A stretch of 26,693 bases of DNA from Deinococcota bacterium. GTDB lineage: Bacteria; Deinococcota; Deinococci; Deinococcales; JAAFIG01. Every line of letters starts with the position of its first letter. Position 1 is the stretch's first letter. The notes under the pieces are model-generated. The model did no database searches, was not told the origin of the DNA, and was given only the letters and a program-made list of their open reading frames with translations. A program made the translations under genes and the position numbers. Below, one piece after another: positions 10,490 to 25,356 of this stretch. The stretch covers positions 1 through 26,693 of the forward strand of contig JBEGTV010000001.1 in the NCBI GenBank assembly GCA_041179225.1. The letters are read 5' to 3'.

Positions 10490-10527
10490 CGGCTCGGGTA
10501 GCATTACTGCGAGGAAAAACAATTAAA

Positions 10528-10668
10528 ATGAAAAAACAAGAATACCAAATCCCGTGTCTCGAGACGTATCAATGGCAAGTATTAACAGGTGTTTCATTGC
10601 CAATTGGAACAAGTGGCTTACCAGAGAACCTTTTCAATGACTTCCTTGAATTCGAGGAACAACCATGA
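10528..10668 (+). CDS. 46-aa peptide with a YxxPxL...LTG leader-like motif (absent from the ORF track)
   Basis: MKKQEYQIPCLETYQWQVLTGVSLPIGTSGLPENLFNDFLEFEEQP*. GAGG lies upstream, the stop overlaps the lipoprotein ATG (ATGA), and a paralog lies at 22868-22999. Confidence 0.78.
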   Translation: MKKQEYQIPCLETYQWQVLTGVSLPIGTSGLPENLFNDFLEFEEQP

Positions 10669-13600
10669 AAAAAGTTATTACTCTAGCATTGTTGCCAGTG
10701 GCACTGATGGCATGTTTACAAGCCCCAAGCCCAGAAGTCAAACCAGTTTCCCCAGACCAGACATTCAAACCCACACTTTTAGGCAGTGTGACTTTGCAGA
10801 TAGATAGTAATTTGGGAATCCAAGGGTCAAAATTTATTCCAAATCGTCGGCTCTCGAGCCAAACCCTTAGCCCAGTCACCGAAAGCAATTTGGTGTTCAC
10901 TCGAGAAACACTGGTCAACATTGACCGTCCGAGCAGTGGCGACAGGTACTTGAACGCGCCGTTTAAGGTCACAAACAATAACTCGAGCAACTTGCAGAAT
11001 TTAACGCTGGTGGCGTATCACAAAAACGGCAATGTTGGCGGCAGTGCCTTTAAGGACATTCAAACCTTTGGTGGCACACTCAACCCAAATGTCAATACAC
11101 TGCTGCCAATTCACACCATGACAGGTTCTGGAACTGTTGTGGTGGACAATACCAAAGCTGACCTACAAATTTTTACTCGAGGTGAAATTGCTACACTGAC
11201 CACTGCCTCAGCCGCACCAAATGGCACGTTACTCAATCCAGGCGAAGGAATTTTGCATTATGGTTTTATTGCCCGTAAAGGCAGCAGTGGAACGTACCGC
11301 ACGATTGCAGGAACAGCTTGTGATCCAGTTGCAAACGTAGGTTGTAACGAAGGCACGATAAACCTTGCGTTGCGAGTCCCACAAACTACCGACCCAAGCG
11401 GAGTAAACGCCCCAGCTTACCGGTACAGCATGACTTTCTTGGTGTTTACCGACAGCGCTGCTCGAGTCACCGAAAGCATCGAAGAACAAGGCACAACCAA
11501 CGCGGCGACTCGAGCTACTGCCCTTGGAGGTTCACCGCAAGTCGTGGCAATGTGCGGCACGAGCCGAAGTTCAAGCAACACCACGTACATCACAGGGGTT
11601 CGTACTGTTGGGGTTGGGGTCAACACCGAAACAGCTTTGATGGGTGGGAAATTTGTACTCACCAGTACCACAACGCCGAATTTCACGGTTAATGGCAATA
11701 TCTCTAAGAATTTTAATACTGCCAGTGGCTTACTCAGCACAGGACTTTCGGCGTTGGGTGGCGCAACCCTGACAACTGCTCTTGTGGGAACACCAACCAA
11801 CTCGAGTAACATAACGGTCAATACAGATGGAAGTCTAAGCATTAACCCAGCCGCGAATTTACGCACCACCGATAGTTTTAATTATTCGATTGCTGATGGA
11901 ACATGCACTTGGACACGTCCGGCTGGTGTAACCATCCAAAACGCCGTGACTTGGTTTGTCAAAAACAATGTGGCAACCACAGGCGATGGGCGCTTCTCGA
12001 GTCCATTCAAAACACTGGTTGAGGCACAAACGGCTTCGCTTGCCAATGACACAATTTATGTGTACAACGGCGATAACAGCACCACAGGGCAGAATGCTGG
12101 AATTACCTTAAAGGCGGGTCAAAAACTGATTGGGCAAGGTGTGGCGCTAACCGTTGGTGGGGATGCCATTGAAGTAGCTGGAACAAACGCCAAAGTGGGC
12201 AATGGGGCTGGAACGGCTATAATGTTAAGCACCAATAACACCTTGAATGGACTTGATGTCAACACTACAGGAATTGGGATTAGCGGCTCGAGTTTTGGAA
12301 CGCTGACAGTCAGTGCTGTGAATGTGAATGTCAGTAACAATACTGCTCTGAATTTAGCAACGGGTACGCTGGCTGCGACCTTTGGTACAATCACTTCTGC
12401 CAATGGGGTAAATGGCGTATCGTTTGATGGTTGTGATGGTACAATCACAGCCACTAATGGCACTTTAAGCTCAAGCAGTGGTCCAGCTAATCATGTTGTC
12501 AACATCGTCAATACCAGTGGAACGAACAGCCTCAACTTTACTTATGGCGGTACAATCAACAAAACCACGGATGGCGCGGCTGTGAATATCCTTGGCTTAA
12601 GTGGTACAGGAGCAGCAACCTTCAATGGTAACGTGACTGGCAATAATGTTTCCGATGGAGTAATGATCAATACCACTTCGCGTCCTGTCACCTTTAGTAC
12701 CCTTTACCTTGGTACAAGCGCGGCACGCTTTACAACGACTCCCGTTGCCCTTGTTGGGAATACTGGTGCAGTTGACCTTGGTGTGTTCACCAGCTATACC
12801 AACGCTGTTCCAGCACTGGAGATCAATTACAGCATTGCCAGCCCGGGGTTGGTCACAACAGATGCGGGTAGTTTATTAGATGCCACTGGTGCAGCTACTG
12901 CATTACTTGTTTCGCATTCAACCAGCCAGTCTTTGAACTTGAATTTTGCAACAATTTCAGCCACTGGTGCTGGAACTCATGGTGTCAACCTCAATCGCAG
13001 TAGTGGTAGCCTGACTGTGACAGGCTCAACCGCCTTTGGTGCAAAGACCGTGGCGGGTATTCAAATCACCAACTCGAGTCTTGCCACGAGTTTTAAGAAA
13101 GTGGATGTGAATGGTGCAGCCGATGGCGTGAAACTGAGCGCCAATACTGGCAGTTTTAGCATCACTGGCGATGGAAATTGGGTTAATGTTCATACCAACA
13201 GCGCAGGCGGAACATTCACTAATCTGACCAACAACGCTTTTGACCTGACCAGTGTTCAGAATGTTCAATTGACAGACATCACCATCAATGGAACAGGCAG
13301 CCACGGTGTGATTGGTTCGGGTGTGAGCGGCACGACCATCTTCTCGAATGTTGATATGACCAATATCGGTAACGCAGATAATGAACACGTCTTTAACTTC
13401 CAAGAGGGTGCAGTTTCTGGCGCACAAGTGAGTGGCTCGTTCGAGGTGAATAATAGCGAGATTAGTAACTTCACCGACAATGGTGTTTACCTCGAGAACT
13501 TTACTGGGACCTTAGATTTTCGCTGGACGAACAATAACCTTCGGAACAACATCACGACTACAGCCTGTGGTGGTGGAAACTGTAATGGTAACGGCATTTT

Positions 13601-14477
13601 GTTGCGGGCTGACGGCACATCGCGCATCAATGCCTTGATCTTAAACGCCGTCTTTGAGGACATTGATGGTATCGGGGTTACTGCCAACCCAGAAGGCAAT
13701 AGCGGCGCACGAATGGACATTAACATTGCTCAAAGCAATTTCACGGCTGAACCTTATGGTGGGACGGGTAACACCAACAATGGCGAAACCGCCATCAGCC
13801 TGCGGAACCAACAGGGCAACAGCATCATGAACTTTCGTTTGTTCTCCAACGATATTAATGATTATACTGGTGAACTAGCGTTGGGCGTGGTTGAGATTGA
13901 AGGCGGCGATTTCACCACCACCAATGGTATCATTGACACGCTTTACATCTATCATGCTCACGCAGGTAATGGACTCCAAATTTTTGCGGATGGCGCAAAT
14001 ACTGGTGGTAGTGGCACAACGAACTTCACCATGAATGTCTCGATGAATGACATCAATTTCCTTGCGGCAACACCCATTTTGGGCAGCTCTATTTTGCTCA
14101 GCAACAATGGGGCGATTTCCGGAAGCATAGTACAGGGCAACTACATTATAACCAATAGTAGATTATTAGCAAATGCAACTGGCACGAGTCGGCGTACACT
14201 AACAATCAATGCAAGGGATTTTAACGATGTCTGTGCGCGAGTTCAAACCAATATCATAGCAGCAGGCACATCTGGTACTCAACCATCAATCAATTTGTCT
14301 TATAACGGTTCAGGTGCAGTTCGTTTACAAGGAATGAGCGGGTCAGGAGACACGAACGCAATAGCTTATCTCGGTGCAAACAATACACTATCTGTTGCTG
14401 CCATTTCTGGTCCGAACAACAATGTAACCAGCGCGACCTGTACCACCCCAACCATCCCTGGAGTATTCCCGTTCTAA
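10665..14477 (+). CDS. 1270-aa lipoprotein: shared N-terminal domain, Ig/cadherin-like domain, right-handed beta-helix-like passenger
   Basis: Lipobox LMA|C. Residues ~1-316 align with the 22996 protein. NTDGSLSINPAANLRTTDSFNYSIADG is Ig-like. WFVKNNVATTGDGRFSSPFKTLVEAQTASLANDTIYV is a typical beta-helix start, followed by N/G/T/S-rich coils. Confidence 0.88.
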   Translation: MKKVITLALLPVALMACLQAPSPEVKPVSPDQTFKPTLLGSVTLQIDSNLGIQGSKFIPNRRLSSQTLSPVTESNLVFTRETLVNIDRPSSGDRYLNAPFKVTNNNSSNLQNLTLVAYHKNGNVGGSAFKDIQTFGGTLNPNVNTLLPIHTMTGSGTVVVDNTKADLQIFTRGEIATLTTASAAPNGTLLNPGEGILHYGFIARKGSSGTYRTIAGTACDPVANVGCNEGTINLALRVPQTTDPSGVNAPAYRYSMTFLVFTDSAARVTESIEEQGTTNAATRATALGGSPQVVAMCGTSRSSSNTTYITGVRTVGVGVNTETALMGGKFVLTSTTTPNFTVNGNISKNFNTASGLLSTGLSALGGATLTTALVGTPTNSSNITVNTDGSLSINPAANLRTTDSFNYSIADGTCTWTRPAGVTIQNAVTWFVKNNVATTGDGRFSSPFKTLVEAQTASLANDTIYVYNGDNSTTGQNAGITLKAGQKLIGQGVALTVGGDAIEVAGTNAKVGNGAGTAIMLSTNNTLNGLDVNTTGIGISGSSFGTLTVSAVNVNVSNNTALNLATGTLAATFGTITSANGVNGVSFDGCDGTITATNGTLSSSSGPANHVVNIVNTSGTNSLNFTYGGTINKTTDGAAVNILGLSGTGAATFNGNVTGNNVSDGVMINTTSRPVTFSTLYLGTSAARFTTTPVALVGNTGAVDLGVFTSYTNAVPALEINYSIASPGLVTTDAGSLLDATGAATALLVSHSTSQSLNLNFATISATGAGTHGVNLNRSSGSLTVTGSTAFGAKTVAGIQITNSSLATSFKKVDVNGAADGVKLSANTGSFSITGDGNWVNVHTNSAGGTFTNLTNNAFDLTSVQNVQLTDITINGTGSHGVIGSGVSGTTIFSNVDMTNIGNADNEHVFNFQEGAVSGAQVSGSFEVNNSEISNFTDNGVYLENFTGTLDFRWTNNNLRNNITTTACGGGNCNGNGILLRADGTSRINALILNAVFEDIDGIGVTANPEGNSGARMDINIAQSNFTAEPYGGTGNTNNGETAISLRNQQGNSIMNFRLFSNDINDYTGELALGVVEIEGGDFTTTNGIIDTLYIYHAHAGNGLQIFADGANTGGSGTTNFTMNVSMNDINFLAATPILGSSILLSNNGAISGSIVQGNYIITNSRLLANATGTSRRTLTINARDFNDVCARVQTNIIAAGTSGTQPSINLSYNGSGAVRLQGMSGSGDTNAIAYLGANNTLSVAAISGPNNNVTSATCTTPTIPGVFPF

Positions 14478-22867: not shown

Positions 22868-22999
22868 ATGGTCATGCAAACACCGAAACTACCGTATCAA
22901 ACACCGAAACTCGAGCAGGAAAAAAGCCATACCGTACTCACAGGGGTCAGTCTGCCAATTGGTGGGATTCTTAGCGAAGATGAAGGAATAGGGCAATGA
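22868..22999 (+). CDS. 43-aa peptide with a YxxPxL...LTG leader-like motif
   Basis: MVMQTPKLPYQTPKLEQEKSHTVLTGVSLPIGGILSEDEGIGQ*. GAGGAG RBS, ATGA overlap with the lipoprotein, and a paralog at 10528-10668. Confidence 0.78.
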   Translation: MVMQTPKLPYQTPKLEQEKSHTVLTGVSLPIGGILSEDEGIGQ

Positions 23000-25356
23000 A
23001 GCGCTTTTTATCGAGTGCAATTGGTTTAGCAGCCTTACTAGCCGCCTGTCAAACACCCATGCCGAATCTCGAGCAAAAACCAATCGGAGTGGCGGGGCAA
23101 GTCGAATTAACTTTTGATTTACGCTCTAAAACCGCTTTTGCAAGGTACAAGAAAAGCGGTTTGATTACACAAACCGTGCAGACCAGTATTTCGTTTGGTG
23201 CTGCGCCAACCATTGGGTTTCTCGCCGATGGTAGCAATAATTATGTTTCTGCTACATTTGATGTCAATAACCTGACTGGCTCGAGCCTGACCGATTTAAC
23301 ACTGGTGGCTAAGCATCAGCAAGGAAATCATGTGGGAACAGCTGTGAAAAATGTGGTGAATTTCTCGGGCAATGCCCTTGACTTTAATGTCTTTGCTCAG
23401 AATGTCAAACCAACCCTGATACCAACGGTACTGACTCCGTTCACAGTCAATTCCAATGTGGCAGATTTGCAATTCCTGACTGAACTCGAGATGGCTGCAT
23501 TGCAAAGCCAAGCGGTCAGTGCTGGTCAGGTTATCACTGCCAATGGCGAATACTTACTGCCGTATGGTTTTATGGCACGAAGCAGCAACACTTCGAGAAC
23601 CTTAGCCACTGGCAACAGTGTAGGGAGTTTAACTGTTTCGATTAAATTACCCAGTGGTAACGAGCCAAGCAGCAATGTGACACGGTTTAGCATGACCTTT
23701 GTGGCATTTGACCAAGCTGTGATCCCTCGAGTTTCTGAAGCGCTTGAGGAACAAAGTAATTCGAGTGCTGCCACTCGAGCCACAAGTTTTGGTGTAGCTC
23801 GAGTGGCAGCCTTACGCAACAGTGCTTTATTGACCGAATCTGACGGTACAAAAGTCAATGTTTGCCAAGTTCGCACGGCTGGCACGGTGGTCGCACCGAC
23901 TGCTCGAATAGACACAACTGCGTTGCTCATAGGGAGTGGACTGAATGACCCGTGCTTTGCTGCGTCTGGGCGGCGCGTATTTGGTGGCAGTTCTTCGGAT
24001 AAAGTTGTGGCACGCCACATTGTGCCCGATGGTGGTTTTTTATTGGCTGGTGAGTTCGCTCAAACCCCGACCAACACCGATGCGATGGTACTCAAATACA
24101 AACCAGATGGTTCTTTGGACTCGAGTTTTGGTGTGGGCGGACTTGCCACAATGGATGCTGTCAATGATGATCTAATCACGGGTTTTCATCTTTTACCGAA
24201 CGGCAAAATGTACTTGGTTGGCTCGAGATTTCGGATTTACAAATTCAATGCCAACGGAACACCAGATACAACTTTTGGCACAAATGGTTTTGCCAGTACC
24301 GTCTTAAGCCAAAGCAGCACCGATGATTTTGTGATTACCAGTGCAGTTAATCCAAGTGATGATTCAATTGTTTTAGCTGGTGTGGTGGTACAAGCTGCGG
24401 GAAACGCCAGCGACATTGGATTGGCTGTTTTTACCAATACTGGAATTCTTAACAATAGTTACAATGGCTCTGGAAAATTGTTCTGGGAGTACCTGAGTGT
24501 AGCCTCAAATCCAGATACACCAATCGCTGTGTACTTTAATGCCGATGGGAGTCTCCTAGTTTTTGGCGATACGATTTCTTCCAATCGTGATTGGGTGGTC
24601 TTCAAATTAGACAACAACGGGCAATTGGATGCCATTAACTTTGGGAACGGTGGGTACTTGCTGATTGATGTTCTCGGAGCAGCCGATTTTTTAACAGTGG
24701 TTGATCGTTTATCAGATGGAAATTTCTTATTGGCAGGTACAGTGAGCGACCCAACTATAGCAAGTACAAATCGCTTAGCCGTGGTTAAAGTAACCGATGC
24801 TGGGCAATTGGATACCAGTTTTGCCAACCAAGGGCAATTTGTACAATCAGCAACAGGGTCAACCTACCGTGAAGCAGTAGCTCTACATGTCCTTGCCGAT
24901 AATCGTGTTTTGGTGGCAGGTACGGATGTTTCACTAACTCGAGGTGTACAGTTTGGATTACTTAAACTCAGTGAATTTGGTGCATTGGTGAGTTCTTTTG
25001 GGACAAGCGGCGTGGCAACTCCTGTTAATTTCTTTGCTGGTTCAGGTAACGACACGCCAACAGGCATTACTGTTTTAAGTGATGGTAGCATTGTCCTCGG
25101 AGGCATTGGCACAAAACCCGGTGCGTTCCCAGCACCAACCCAACCGCATATGGCACTGGCAAAATACACCTCGAGTGGTGTGCTGGACACAACTTTTAAT
25201 AGCACTGGCTTAAAAACCACCTTATTTGGCAATAATGGCTCGAATCAGACTGCCTTGCCGCCTGCGGTTTTTACAAATGATGCTTTGCTGCACGTTGGCT
25301 GGGCTGGGTTTACTGGACAATCAAATAATATCACGCTCTACAAAACCCTGCCATAA
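22996..25356 (+). CDS. 786-aa lipoprotein: shared N-terminal domain plus delta-60 (DUF5122-type) repeat beta-propeller
   Basis: Lipobox LAA|C. Residues ~1-296 align with the 10665 protein. About seven repeats follow, such as KYKPDGSLDSSFGVGG, KFNANGTPDTTFGTNG, KVTDAGQLDTSFANQG and KYTSSGVLDTTFNSTG. Confidence 0.9.
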   Translation: MKRFLSSAIGLAALLAACQTPMPNLEQKPIGVAGQVELTFDLRSKTAFARYKKSGLITQTVQTSISFGAAPTIGFLADGSNNYVSATFDVNNLTGSSLTDLTLVAKHQQGNHVGTAVKNVVNFSGNALDFNVFAQNVKPTLIPTVLTPFTVNSNVADLQFLTELEMAALQSQAVSAGQVITANGEYLLPYGFMARSSNTSRTLATGNSVGSLTVSIKLPSGNEPSSNVTRFSMTFVAFDQAVIPRVSEALEEQSNSSAATRATSFGVARVAALRNSALLTESDGTKVNVCQVRTAGTVVAPTARIDTTALLIGSGLNDPCFAASGRRVFGGSSSDKVVARHIVPDGGFLLAGEFAQTPTNTDAMVLKYKPDGSLDSSFGVGGLATMDAVNDDLITGFHLLPNGKMYLVGSRFRIYKFNANGTPDTTFGTNGFASTVLSQSSTDDFVITSAVNPSDDSIVLAGVVVQAAGNASDIGLAVFTNTGILNNSYNGSGKLFWEYLSVASNPDTPIAVYFNADGSLLVFGDTISSNRDWVVFKLDNNGQLDAINFGNGGYLLIDVLGAADFLTVVDRLSDGNFLLAGTVSDPTIASTNRLAVVKVTDAGQLDTSFANQGQFVQSATGSTYREAVALHVLADNRVLVAGTDVSLTRGVQFGLLKLSEFGALVSSFGTSGVATPVNFFAGSGNDTPTGITVLSDGSIVLGGIGTKPGAFPAPTQPHMALAKYTSSGVLDTTFNSTGLKTTLFGNNGSNQTALPPAVFTNDALLHVGWAGFTGQSNNITLYKTLP

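Follow-up and report, generated by a model that had tools for sequence, protein, structure and literature searches.

What is made by the 46-codon open reading frame that stands directly in front of a gene for a large lipoprotein in a Deinococcota bacterium, and that shares its last four nucleotides with that gene? The window, by which we mean the whole stretch of DNA that was analysed (26,693 nt), contains two such pairs, the first of which is the subject of this study. Our preferred answer, to which we assign a probability of roughly two in three, is that the short gene encodes the precursor of a cyclase-less, lasso-related RiPP pathway. It would be for Deinococcales what the linear polyphosphorylated peptides (LPPs) are for Bacillota, and a counterpart also of the phosphorylated lasso peptides. 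As predicted from sequence, the most likely product would be an RRE-dependent, B2-cleaved, probably Ser-phosphorylated linear RiPP and not a lasso peptide. The features to which the argument refers are given here in order of position.

10511-10515, + strand: Shine-Dalgarno-like GAGGA, 13 nt 5′ of the start of peptide 1 and slightly further off than in other members
10528-10668, + strand: peptide gene 1, 46 aa, ATG start and TGA stop, predicted to encode the precursor of a linear modified peptide that depends on an RRE
10543-10563, + strand: Y6-Q-I-P9-C-L11-E12, matching YxxPxLE, the predicted RRE-binding leader motif; L-E is written CTCGAG
10579-10608, + strand: VLTGVSLPIG block, residues 18-27 of peptide 1, with the same protein sequence as 22934-22963
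10585-10596, + strand: T20-G21-V22-S23, the predicted leader/core junction and predicted phospho-acceptor Ser23
10609-10665, + strand: variable acidic tail of peptide 1, holding GAGG (10654-10657), the Shine-Dalgarno box of lipoprotein 1
10665-10668, + strand: ATGA, in which the stop of peptide 1 overlaps the start codon of lipoprotein 1 (translational coupling)
10665-14477, + strand: lipoprotein 1, 1270 aa, with a signal peptide and lipobox Cys17 (10665-10715), a beta-sandwich N-domain to about 11630, and an Ig-like and beta-helix-like passenger
22868-22999, + strand: peptide gene 2, 43 aa, a paralog of gene 1 with ATG behind a GAGGAG box, Y10, T at Y+15 and S at Y+18
22996-25356, + strand: lipoprotein 2, 786 aa, starting in an ATGA overlap, with the same N-domain followed by delta-60/DUF5122 beta-propeller repeats

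The two peptide genes already speak for selection at the protein level. VLTGVSLPIG is encoded as gta tta aca ggt gtt tca ttg cca att gga in peptide 1 and as gta ctc aca ggg gtc agt ctg cca att ggt in peptide 2; six of the ten codons differ, all synonymously, including a Ser written TCA in one copy and AGT in the other. The initial annotation had drawn attention to this pattern and had read it as the mark of a translated, constrained peptide. Both stretches were read again, its position for the second copy (22934-22963) proved correct, and the first copy was placed at 10579-10608. BLASTP aligns the two peptides with 16/26 identities (E 6e-07). The ortholog comparison that had been proposed gives a peptide dN/dS of 0.13-0.25 at three orthologous loci where the frame is kept, against 0.12-0.16 for the adjacent lipoprotein N-domain.

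Conservation in relatives, also put forward as a check, is extensive. The window genome was assembled into 428 contigs (2.68 Mb; 46.7% G+C) and is 57% complete; its nearest public relatives are MAGs labelled 'Deinococcales bacterium'. A peptide profile search recovers seven copies in it at E <= 1e-5, and other genomes of the genus mostly give 10-19 matches at E <= 1, with 2-5 in two others. All 18 genomes of the same family (f1) contain at least a weak match, and 15 of the 18 match a wider, 26-member profile at E <= 1e-3. Beyond the window's family only four genomes in a 301-genome sample of the order match this wider profile at the same threshold. Thirty-nine family members had already been predicted by gene callers, all as 'hypothetical protein', and the window peptide sequence itself is found only in DNA metagenomes.

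We inspected 40 matches, namely those in the window, those on other contigs of its genome and 30 loci from three better-assembled relatives. An N-domain lipoprotein gene lies downstream in 33 of these, and the ATGA overlap with that gene is present in 30. Shine-Dalgarno-like boxes are found 7-16 nt 5′ of the peptide start in 21 of 25 members, and the corresponding box of the lipoprotein lies within the peptide tail in 19 of 25, a location that explains why the peptides so often end in G/E-E-Q. Judged by synonymous divergence between paralogs, low dN/dS between orthologs and a frame kept at dozens of loci, the open reading frame at 10528-10668 is a real gene under purifying selection and a member of a multi-copy family.

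Neither window peptide matches any Pfam or NCBIfam model, even at E 10, and the anatomy of the family was taken from an alignment of 26 members. The consensus consists of YxxPxLE, eight residues, [T/I]-G-x-S-[LF]-P-[IF]-G-T and an acidic tail. The Y, P, L and E of the first motif and the G that follows the T position are present in 26/26, almost all members keep the S and P of S-[LF]-P-[IF]-G-T, and an aromatic residue occurs about four to five positions C-terminal of the Glu of YxxPxLE. The C-terminal tail is variable and acidic, often with DF[LM]E. Twenty-one members have T directly before the invariant G, three have I, one has V and one N; the closest ortholog of peptide 1 carries I there. 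Sixteen members have T at Y+15 and S at Y+18; in seven, peptide 1 included, the spacing is one residue shorter (T at Y+14, S at Y+17).

This arrangement is that of lasso leaders, which are recognized by [Y/W]xxPx[L/V/I] and by Thr, or rarely Ile or Val, at position -2. Peptide 1 supplies Y6, P9, L11 and T20-G21, and T, I or V precedes the invariant G in 25 of the 26 members. The earlier suggestion that YQIPCL...LTG could be an RRE-type leader thus gains support from the invariance of YxxPxLE and from PqqD-family RRE genes that lie within a few kb of the peptide gene in Deinococcus soli and other Deinococcales. Its companion, that any product would be non-canonical, holds as well. Canonical lasso cores open with a small residue and close their macrolactam through an Asp or Glu at position 7, 8 or 9. 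Counted from G21 or V22, the first acidic core residue falls at position 12-13 in peptide 1 and at 11-14 in its paralogs, core positions 7-9 are never acidic in the 26 aligned members, and the peptide-lipoprotein-enzyme loci examined have no cyclase. The lack of Asp or Glu at core positions 7-9, together with the lack of an Asn-synthetase-like cyclase in these loci, argues that the product is not a lasso peptide.

From its position just past T-G, the conserved Ser is the likely modification site, which would account for sequence conservation that reaches beyond the leader. The numbering of this residue depends on the point of cleavage. If the B2 rule (T at -2) applies, by analogy with lasso systems, the predicted cut falls after G21 and the Ser would be core residue 2 here and core residue 3 in Deinococcus variants. 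If the LPP rule (T at -1) applies instead, it would be core residue 3 in peptide 1.

The enzymes expected of such a pathway are found beside peptide-lipoprotein pairs elsewhere in the order. The only database match from a named organism is a 52-aa protein of D. soli (locus L057), whose gene is grouped with those for an HprK-related P-loop protein, an NTP_transf_5 protein (PF14907), a lasso B2 protein (53 bits with NF033537, cut-off 33), a 582-aa N-domain lipoprotein and a PqqD-family protein with top scores to lasso B1 chaperone models. A second peptide-lipoprotein pair occupies the opposite strand at this locus, and within 10 kb there is no cyclase among the called genes with Pfam matches. 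In G128 (L066) the genes for PqqD and the HprK-like kinase come first, then those for the peptide and its N-domain lipoprotein; three genes for phage-tail-collar-domain proteins, one for a short N-domain lipoprotein and, last, one for a 448-aa NTP_transf_5::B2 fusion (hereafter NTase::B2) follow. G200 (L067) has an HprK-like kinase, NTase::B2, peptide and lipoprotein, with no PqqD gene confirmed at that locus, and in G160 (L068) and G267 (L069) a PqqD and HprK-like kinase pair is divergent from peptide-lipoprotein-NTase::B2.

[quoted passage not shown] No cyclase was seen at L066-L069, where part of the ORFs was Pfam-scanned. Nor was a SipW-like signal peptidase (LppS) seen in the loci examined, which have a lasso B2 domain instead.

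How general is this association? Across the 301 genomes of the order, NTase::B2 is present in 89 (a tally that includes one unpublished genome, G250, on which no conclusion depends), the N-domain in 80 and the peptide profile in 20. Because the profile reaches 20 genomes and the fusion 89, the link between peptide and enzymes leans partly on diverged peptides that were found by eye. At least eight of 14 sampled NTase::B2 loci, mostly from Deinococcus, have a small ORF with the pattern PYxxPxVxxLGxWxxxTLxxSxPxG directly 5′ of a large lipoprotein gene, and the window-family profile is too narrow for these peptides. Outside the window's family, N-domain and NTase::B2 occur together in 48 genomes against 16.8 expected, a descriptive figure that is inflated by kinship; 27 genomes there have the fusion only, 15 the N-domain only and 192 neither. 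In four of five Deinococcus genomes the sole PqqD-domain gene lies within 11 kb of NTase::B2.

Several other arrangements were observed at these loci. In G100, a four-contig Deinococcus genome, a 177,466-bp replicon carries NTase::B2 together with genes for three N-domain lipoproteins and two small ORFs with leaders (L082, G100:C4:69000-87000), and the only PqqD gene of the genome lies 3 kb beyond. Outside the window's family, one to three tandem genes of ~170 aa follow the peptide-lipoprotein pair at L066:6072-7634, L067:12979-13494, L057:4635-5195 and L080:1870-3407. The phage-tail-collar domain (PF07484) is assigned to one L066 gene and to the L057 gene by Pfam, and to the others by sequence similarity.

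No RRE, kinase or protease gene lies within the 26,693-nt window, the other genes of which are housekeeping genes. A search of the whole genome for such enzymes, which the initial annotation had recommended, located NTase::B2 on contig C248 and a PqqD and HprK-like pair on contig C369. The C248 protein scores 35.4 bits with NF033537 (cut-off 33), and its catalytic Cys and His align with those of lasso B2 proteins. Its gene stands between a CapD-type polysaccharide-biosynthesis gene and a gene for an MFS_3 transporter, in the order CapD-type, NTase::B2, MFS_3. The fusion is followed by MFS_3 also in G001 and G003, making three genomes of the genus with the window's, and a CapD-type gene lies 5′ of the fusion in G003, by Pfam, and in G001, by N-terminal sequence only. 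The fusion locus of G006 holds Wzy_C and Bac_transf genes.

On C369 the genes for the PqqD protein and the HprK-related protein are followed by two for GT2 glycosyltransferases. A second PqqD and kinase operon, kept in G003, G004 and G006, encodes a kinase that shares 33% identity with the D. soli protein (E 2e-34) and an RRE that is, among solved structures, most like the lasso B1 proteins TbiB1 and TfuB1. The G003 operon at G003:C75 adjoins an NB-ARC/TPR regulator and lies 4 kb from a cassette; no ortholog of this type of operon was found in the 57%-complete window genome.

A 506-508-aa gene with AAA-ATPase_like and PDDEXK_9 domains was encountered twice in G003, once between the PqqD-kinase operon and the cassette (L036:7314-8834, G003:C75) and again beside the CapD-NTase::B2 locus (L084:8168-9694, G003:C46). 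The gene may be mobile or repeated.

The pathway that we propose is assembled from these gene contents and motifs. A PqqD-type RRE would bind the YxxPxLE leader, and an HprK-like kinase would phosphorylate the conserved Ser two or three residues beyond the junction (Ser23 in peptide 1). The B2 domain would cut the leader off after T20 or G21, the nucleotidyltransferase, with neighbouring sugar enzymes, may extend the phosphate, and export may fall to the MFS_3 transporter encoded beside the fusion enzyme. Within the window's family, the products of 10-19 dispersed precursor genes would all be processed in trans by a single enzyme set. The mature peptide may then work at the cell surface with the N-domain of its own lipoprotein, a conjecture to which we return below.

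The closest published parallel is provided by the LPPs, which are linear peptides of Bacillota encoded in lppA-K-B-S-D-N clusters (Popov et al., Nat Commun 2026, PMC13381572). LppA carries the motif YxxPxVLxHQxIxFETxxS, is cut after T(-1) and is polyphosphorylated on Ser3, and the clusters are often embedded in capsule loci (PMC13381572). Discrete lasso and LPP RREs alike recognize [Y/W]xxPx[L/V/I], and the authors describe LPPs as restricted to Bacillota and of unknown function (PMC13381572); their paper makes no mention of lipoproteins or Deinococcus. Both systems lack a cyclase, the predicted Deinococcales product is linear like an LPP, and both have a discrete PqqD-type RRE, an HprK-like kinase and a PF14907-type NTP transferase, with enzyme genes embedded in polysaccharide-biosynthesis loci. 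The precursors likewise share a variable C-terminus and a YxxPx[VL] leader with Thr at Y+15 and Ser at Y+18 (16 of our 26 members), a comparison made with the published consensus, from which the intervening residues differ.

However, the leader peptidase of the Deinococcales system is a lasso B2 cysteine-protease domain fused to a nucleotidyltransferase, whereas that of LPPs is LppS, the SipW-like serine peptidase that guided their discovery. The MsbA-like ABC exporter is also missing here, and an MFS_3 transporter stands beside the fusion in three genomes of the genus. Moreover, the precursor gene overlaps a lipoprotein gene in Deinococcales (30 of the 40 inspected), and its 10-19 copies are dispersed through each genome, in contrast to the one to three that lie within an LPP cluster. 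The hosts, finally, are Deinococcota rather than Bacillota.

Paeninodin and pseudomycoidin are phosphorylated lasso peptides made with split B1/B2 proteins, a kinase K and sometimes a transferase N. For the Bsf lasso peptide of Bradymonas, B1 assists the kinase in phosphorylating core Ser3, and B2 carries out cleavage (Duan et al., PMC10368454). The B1-type RRE, the B2 Cys protease and the HprK-like kinase are common to these systems and ours. So is the YxxPxL leader with Thr, Ile or Val just before the junction: five of our 26 members have I, V or N in place of T, and Ile or Val may replace Thr at -2 in phosphorylated lasso precursors (PMC10368454). Unlike the lasso clusters, the Deinococcales loci have no Asn-synthetase-like cyclase and their precursors no Asp or Glu at core positions 7-9, so no lariat could form; fusion of B2 to the nucleotidyltransferase and the lipoprotein partner gene are further differences. 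The Deinococcales family thus appears to be a mixture, with the linearity, kinase, transferase, polysaccharide context and Y/T/S spacing of LPPs and the B1 RRE and B2 protease of lasso systems.

The genomic layout has a precedent of its own. In the prochlorosins of Prochlorococcus, one maturase acts on the products of many scattered precursor genes that share a conserved leader, and its chemistry forms lanthionines. Many scattered precursors, a conserved leader and, as predicted here, a single enzyme set located elsewhere are what the two systems have in common. By contrast with prochlorosins, the first core residues are also conserved here, each precursor has its own lipoprotein partner, and the chemistry differs.

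Other readings of the gene must be weighed against this one. The most durable holds that the peptide is never modified and serves its neighbor directly, either as a coupling ORF through which termination-reinitiation translates the lipoprotein, or as a small cytoplasmic protein acting with it, with no RRE processing in either case. The conserved ATGA overlap and the Shine-Dalgarno box inside the peptide tail are what such a role would produce, and for the majority of copies in the window's family, both window copies among them, no RiPP enzyme gene lies close by. Yet translational coupling needs neither an invariant YxxPxLE nor a [T/I]GxSxPxG block at LPP-like spacing, and the repeated adjacency of the peptide to PqqD, HprK-like and B2 genes in five other genomes would go unexplained. 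We consider this reading unlikely, and the idea of an arrest peptide or uORF is kept only as a part of it.

The peptide might alternatively be a signal that large BTAD-AAA-TPR (STAND) regulators sense, by analogy with TPR regulators that respond to peptides. Five or more cassettes have a divergent gene for such a regulator <= 400 bp away, two of these cassettes being in the window genome (C97, C240), and one regulator adjoins the G003 PqqD-kinase operon. Most cassettes, including both in the window, nevertheless lack such a neighbor, and the regulators may simply activate adjacent operons. A signalling role would in any event be compatible with a modified precursor rather than an alternative to it, and as a separate explanation we rate it very unlikely.

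A canonical lasso precursor, cyclized by a lasso cyclase from another locus of the genome, would fit the lasso-like leader. The same genus does possess what looks like a standard cluster (L060, G004:C92, 7626-10508), with B2, PqqD, a 640-aa Asn-synthetase-like ORF identified as a cyclase by N-terminal sequence only, and a WVAPQLE precursor. If L060 is a lasso cluster, lasso and lasso-like linear systems with similar leaders coexist, as has been analysed for Bacilli (PMC13381572). But the acidic core residues of our family lie at 11-14 and never at 7-9, the peptide-lipoprotein-enzyme loci examined contain no cyclase gene, and a conserved core with a variable tail is the opposite of what a ring requires. 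Ring formation is therefore highly improbable. That the feature is no gene at all, and either arose by chance or is conserved as a DNA or RNA element, is barely credible: the L-E codons do coincide with the hyper-abundant CTCGAG of this genome in 20 of 26 copies, but the other six use different L-E codons, paralogs differ synonymously, and frame, start, stop and ribosome-binding site are kept at dozens of loci across genera with 47-67% G+C.

If the gene encodes an RRE-dependent precursor, as we favor, the role of the lipoprotein has to be considered. The N-terminal parts of lipoproteins 1 and 2 (roughly 300-400 aa) are paralogous (29% identity, E 5e-26), and the C-terminal parts are unrelated. 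An L-x-x-C lipobox is present at residues 15-20 in all 27 aligned partners, with the Cys invariant and mostly followed by Gln. An AF2 model of the N-domain is a beta-sandwich (pLDDT 75, pTM 0.79). Foldseek finds nothing in the PDB for this model at E <= 1e-3, the best VIA-align score (Z = 6.4) is to WSSV envelope proteins and is uninformative as to relatives, and matches among AFDB clusters are uncharacterised proteins only. Common ancestry of the peptide with either the N-domain or the mature lipoprotein N-terminus was considered and rejected: MAFFT aligned them repeatedly, but the hhalign probability is 0.1%.

The conserved 4-nt overlap, together with the operon order peptide-lipoprotein-NTase::B2 in Deinococcus, argues that the lipoprotein is part of the system. 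It counts against a partnership that the peptide has no export signal, whereas its partner is Sec-exported. The 1:1 production of each precursor and its own lipoprotein makes it probable that the mature peptide acts with that N-domain at the surface, although this remains conjecture. More specifically, and only tentatively, the processed (phospho- or phosphoglyco-) peptide could serve the N-domain of its own lipoprotein as a dedicated ligand, as a cap or as a covalent adduct. If so, RiPP-type maturation would build two-component surface proteins, with one pair for each variable passenger.

These findings suggest that the cyclase-less logic of RRE, kinase and transferase, described in 2026 for the LPPs of Bacillota only, is present in Deinococcota with a leader protease derived from lasso systems. 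In an uncultured freshwater lineage the peptide-lipoprotein pair has expanded to 10-19 copies per genome, and the conserved overlap with a gene for a surface lipoprotein offers a functional lead, either to surface decoration or to partnering with the lipoprotein. Since the cluster is present in cultured Deinococcus genomes, the system can be tested in a tractable organism. Its wide occurrence in that genus gives a handle on a RiPP class that has no known role.

Two minor observations concern sequences that resemble or overlap the leader. Weaker profile matches at L055 (G013:C1:2930685-2930807) and L040 (G003:C32) have a lasso-type leader, PYQxPKLExLGxF..., with no N-domain lipoprotein downstream, and are probably precursors of another RRE-dependent pathway. 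Separately, CTCGAG occurs 124 times in the 26,693-nt window against 5.9 expected from base composition, and at 4.83 per kb genome-wide. It encodes Leu-Glu in 20 of 26 peptide leaders and in nine of the 17 LE dipeptides of four other window genes, and the excess looks like that of a HIP-like iterated palindrome.
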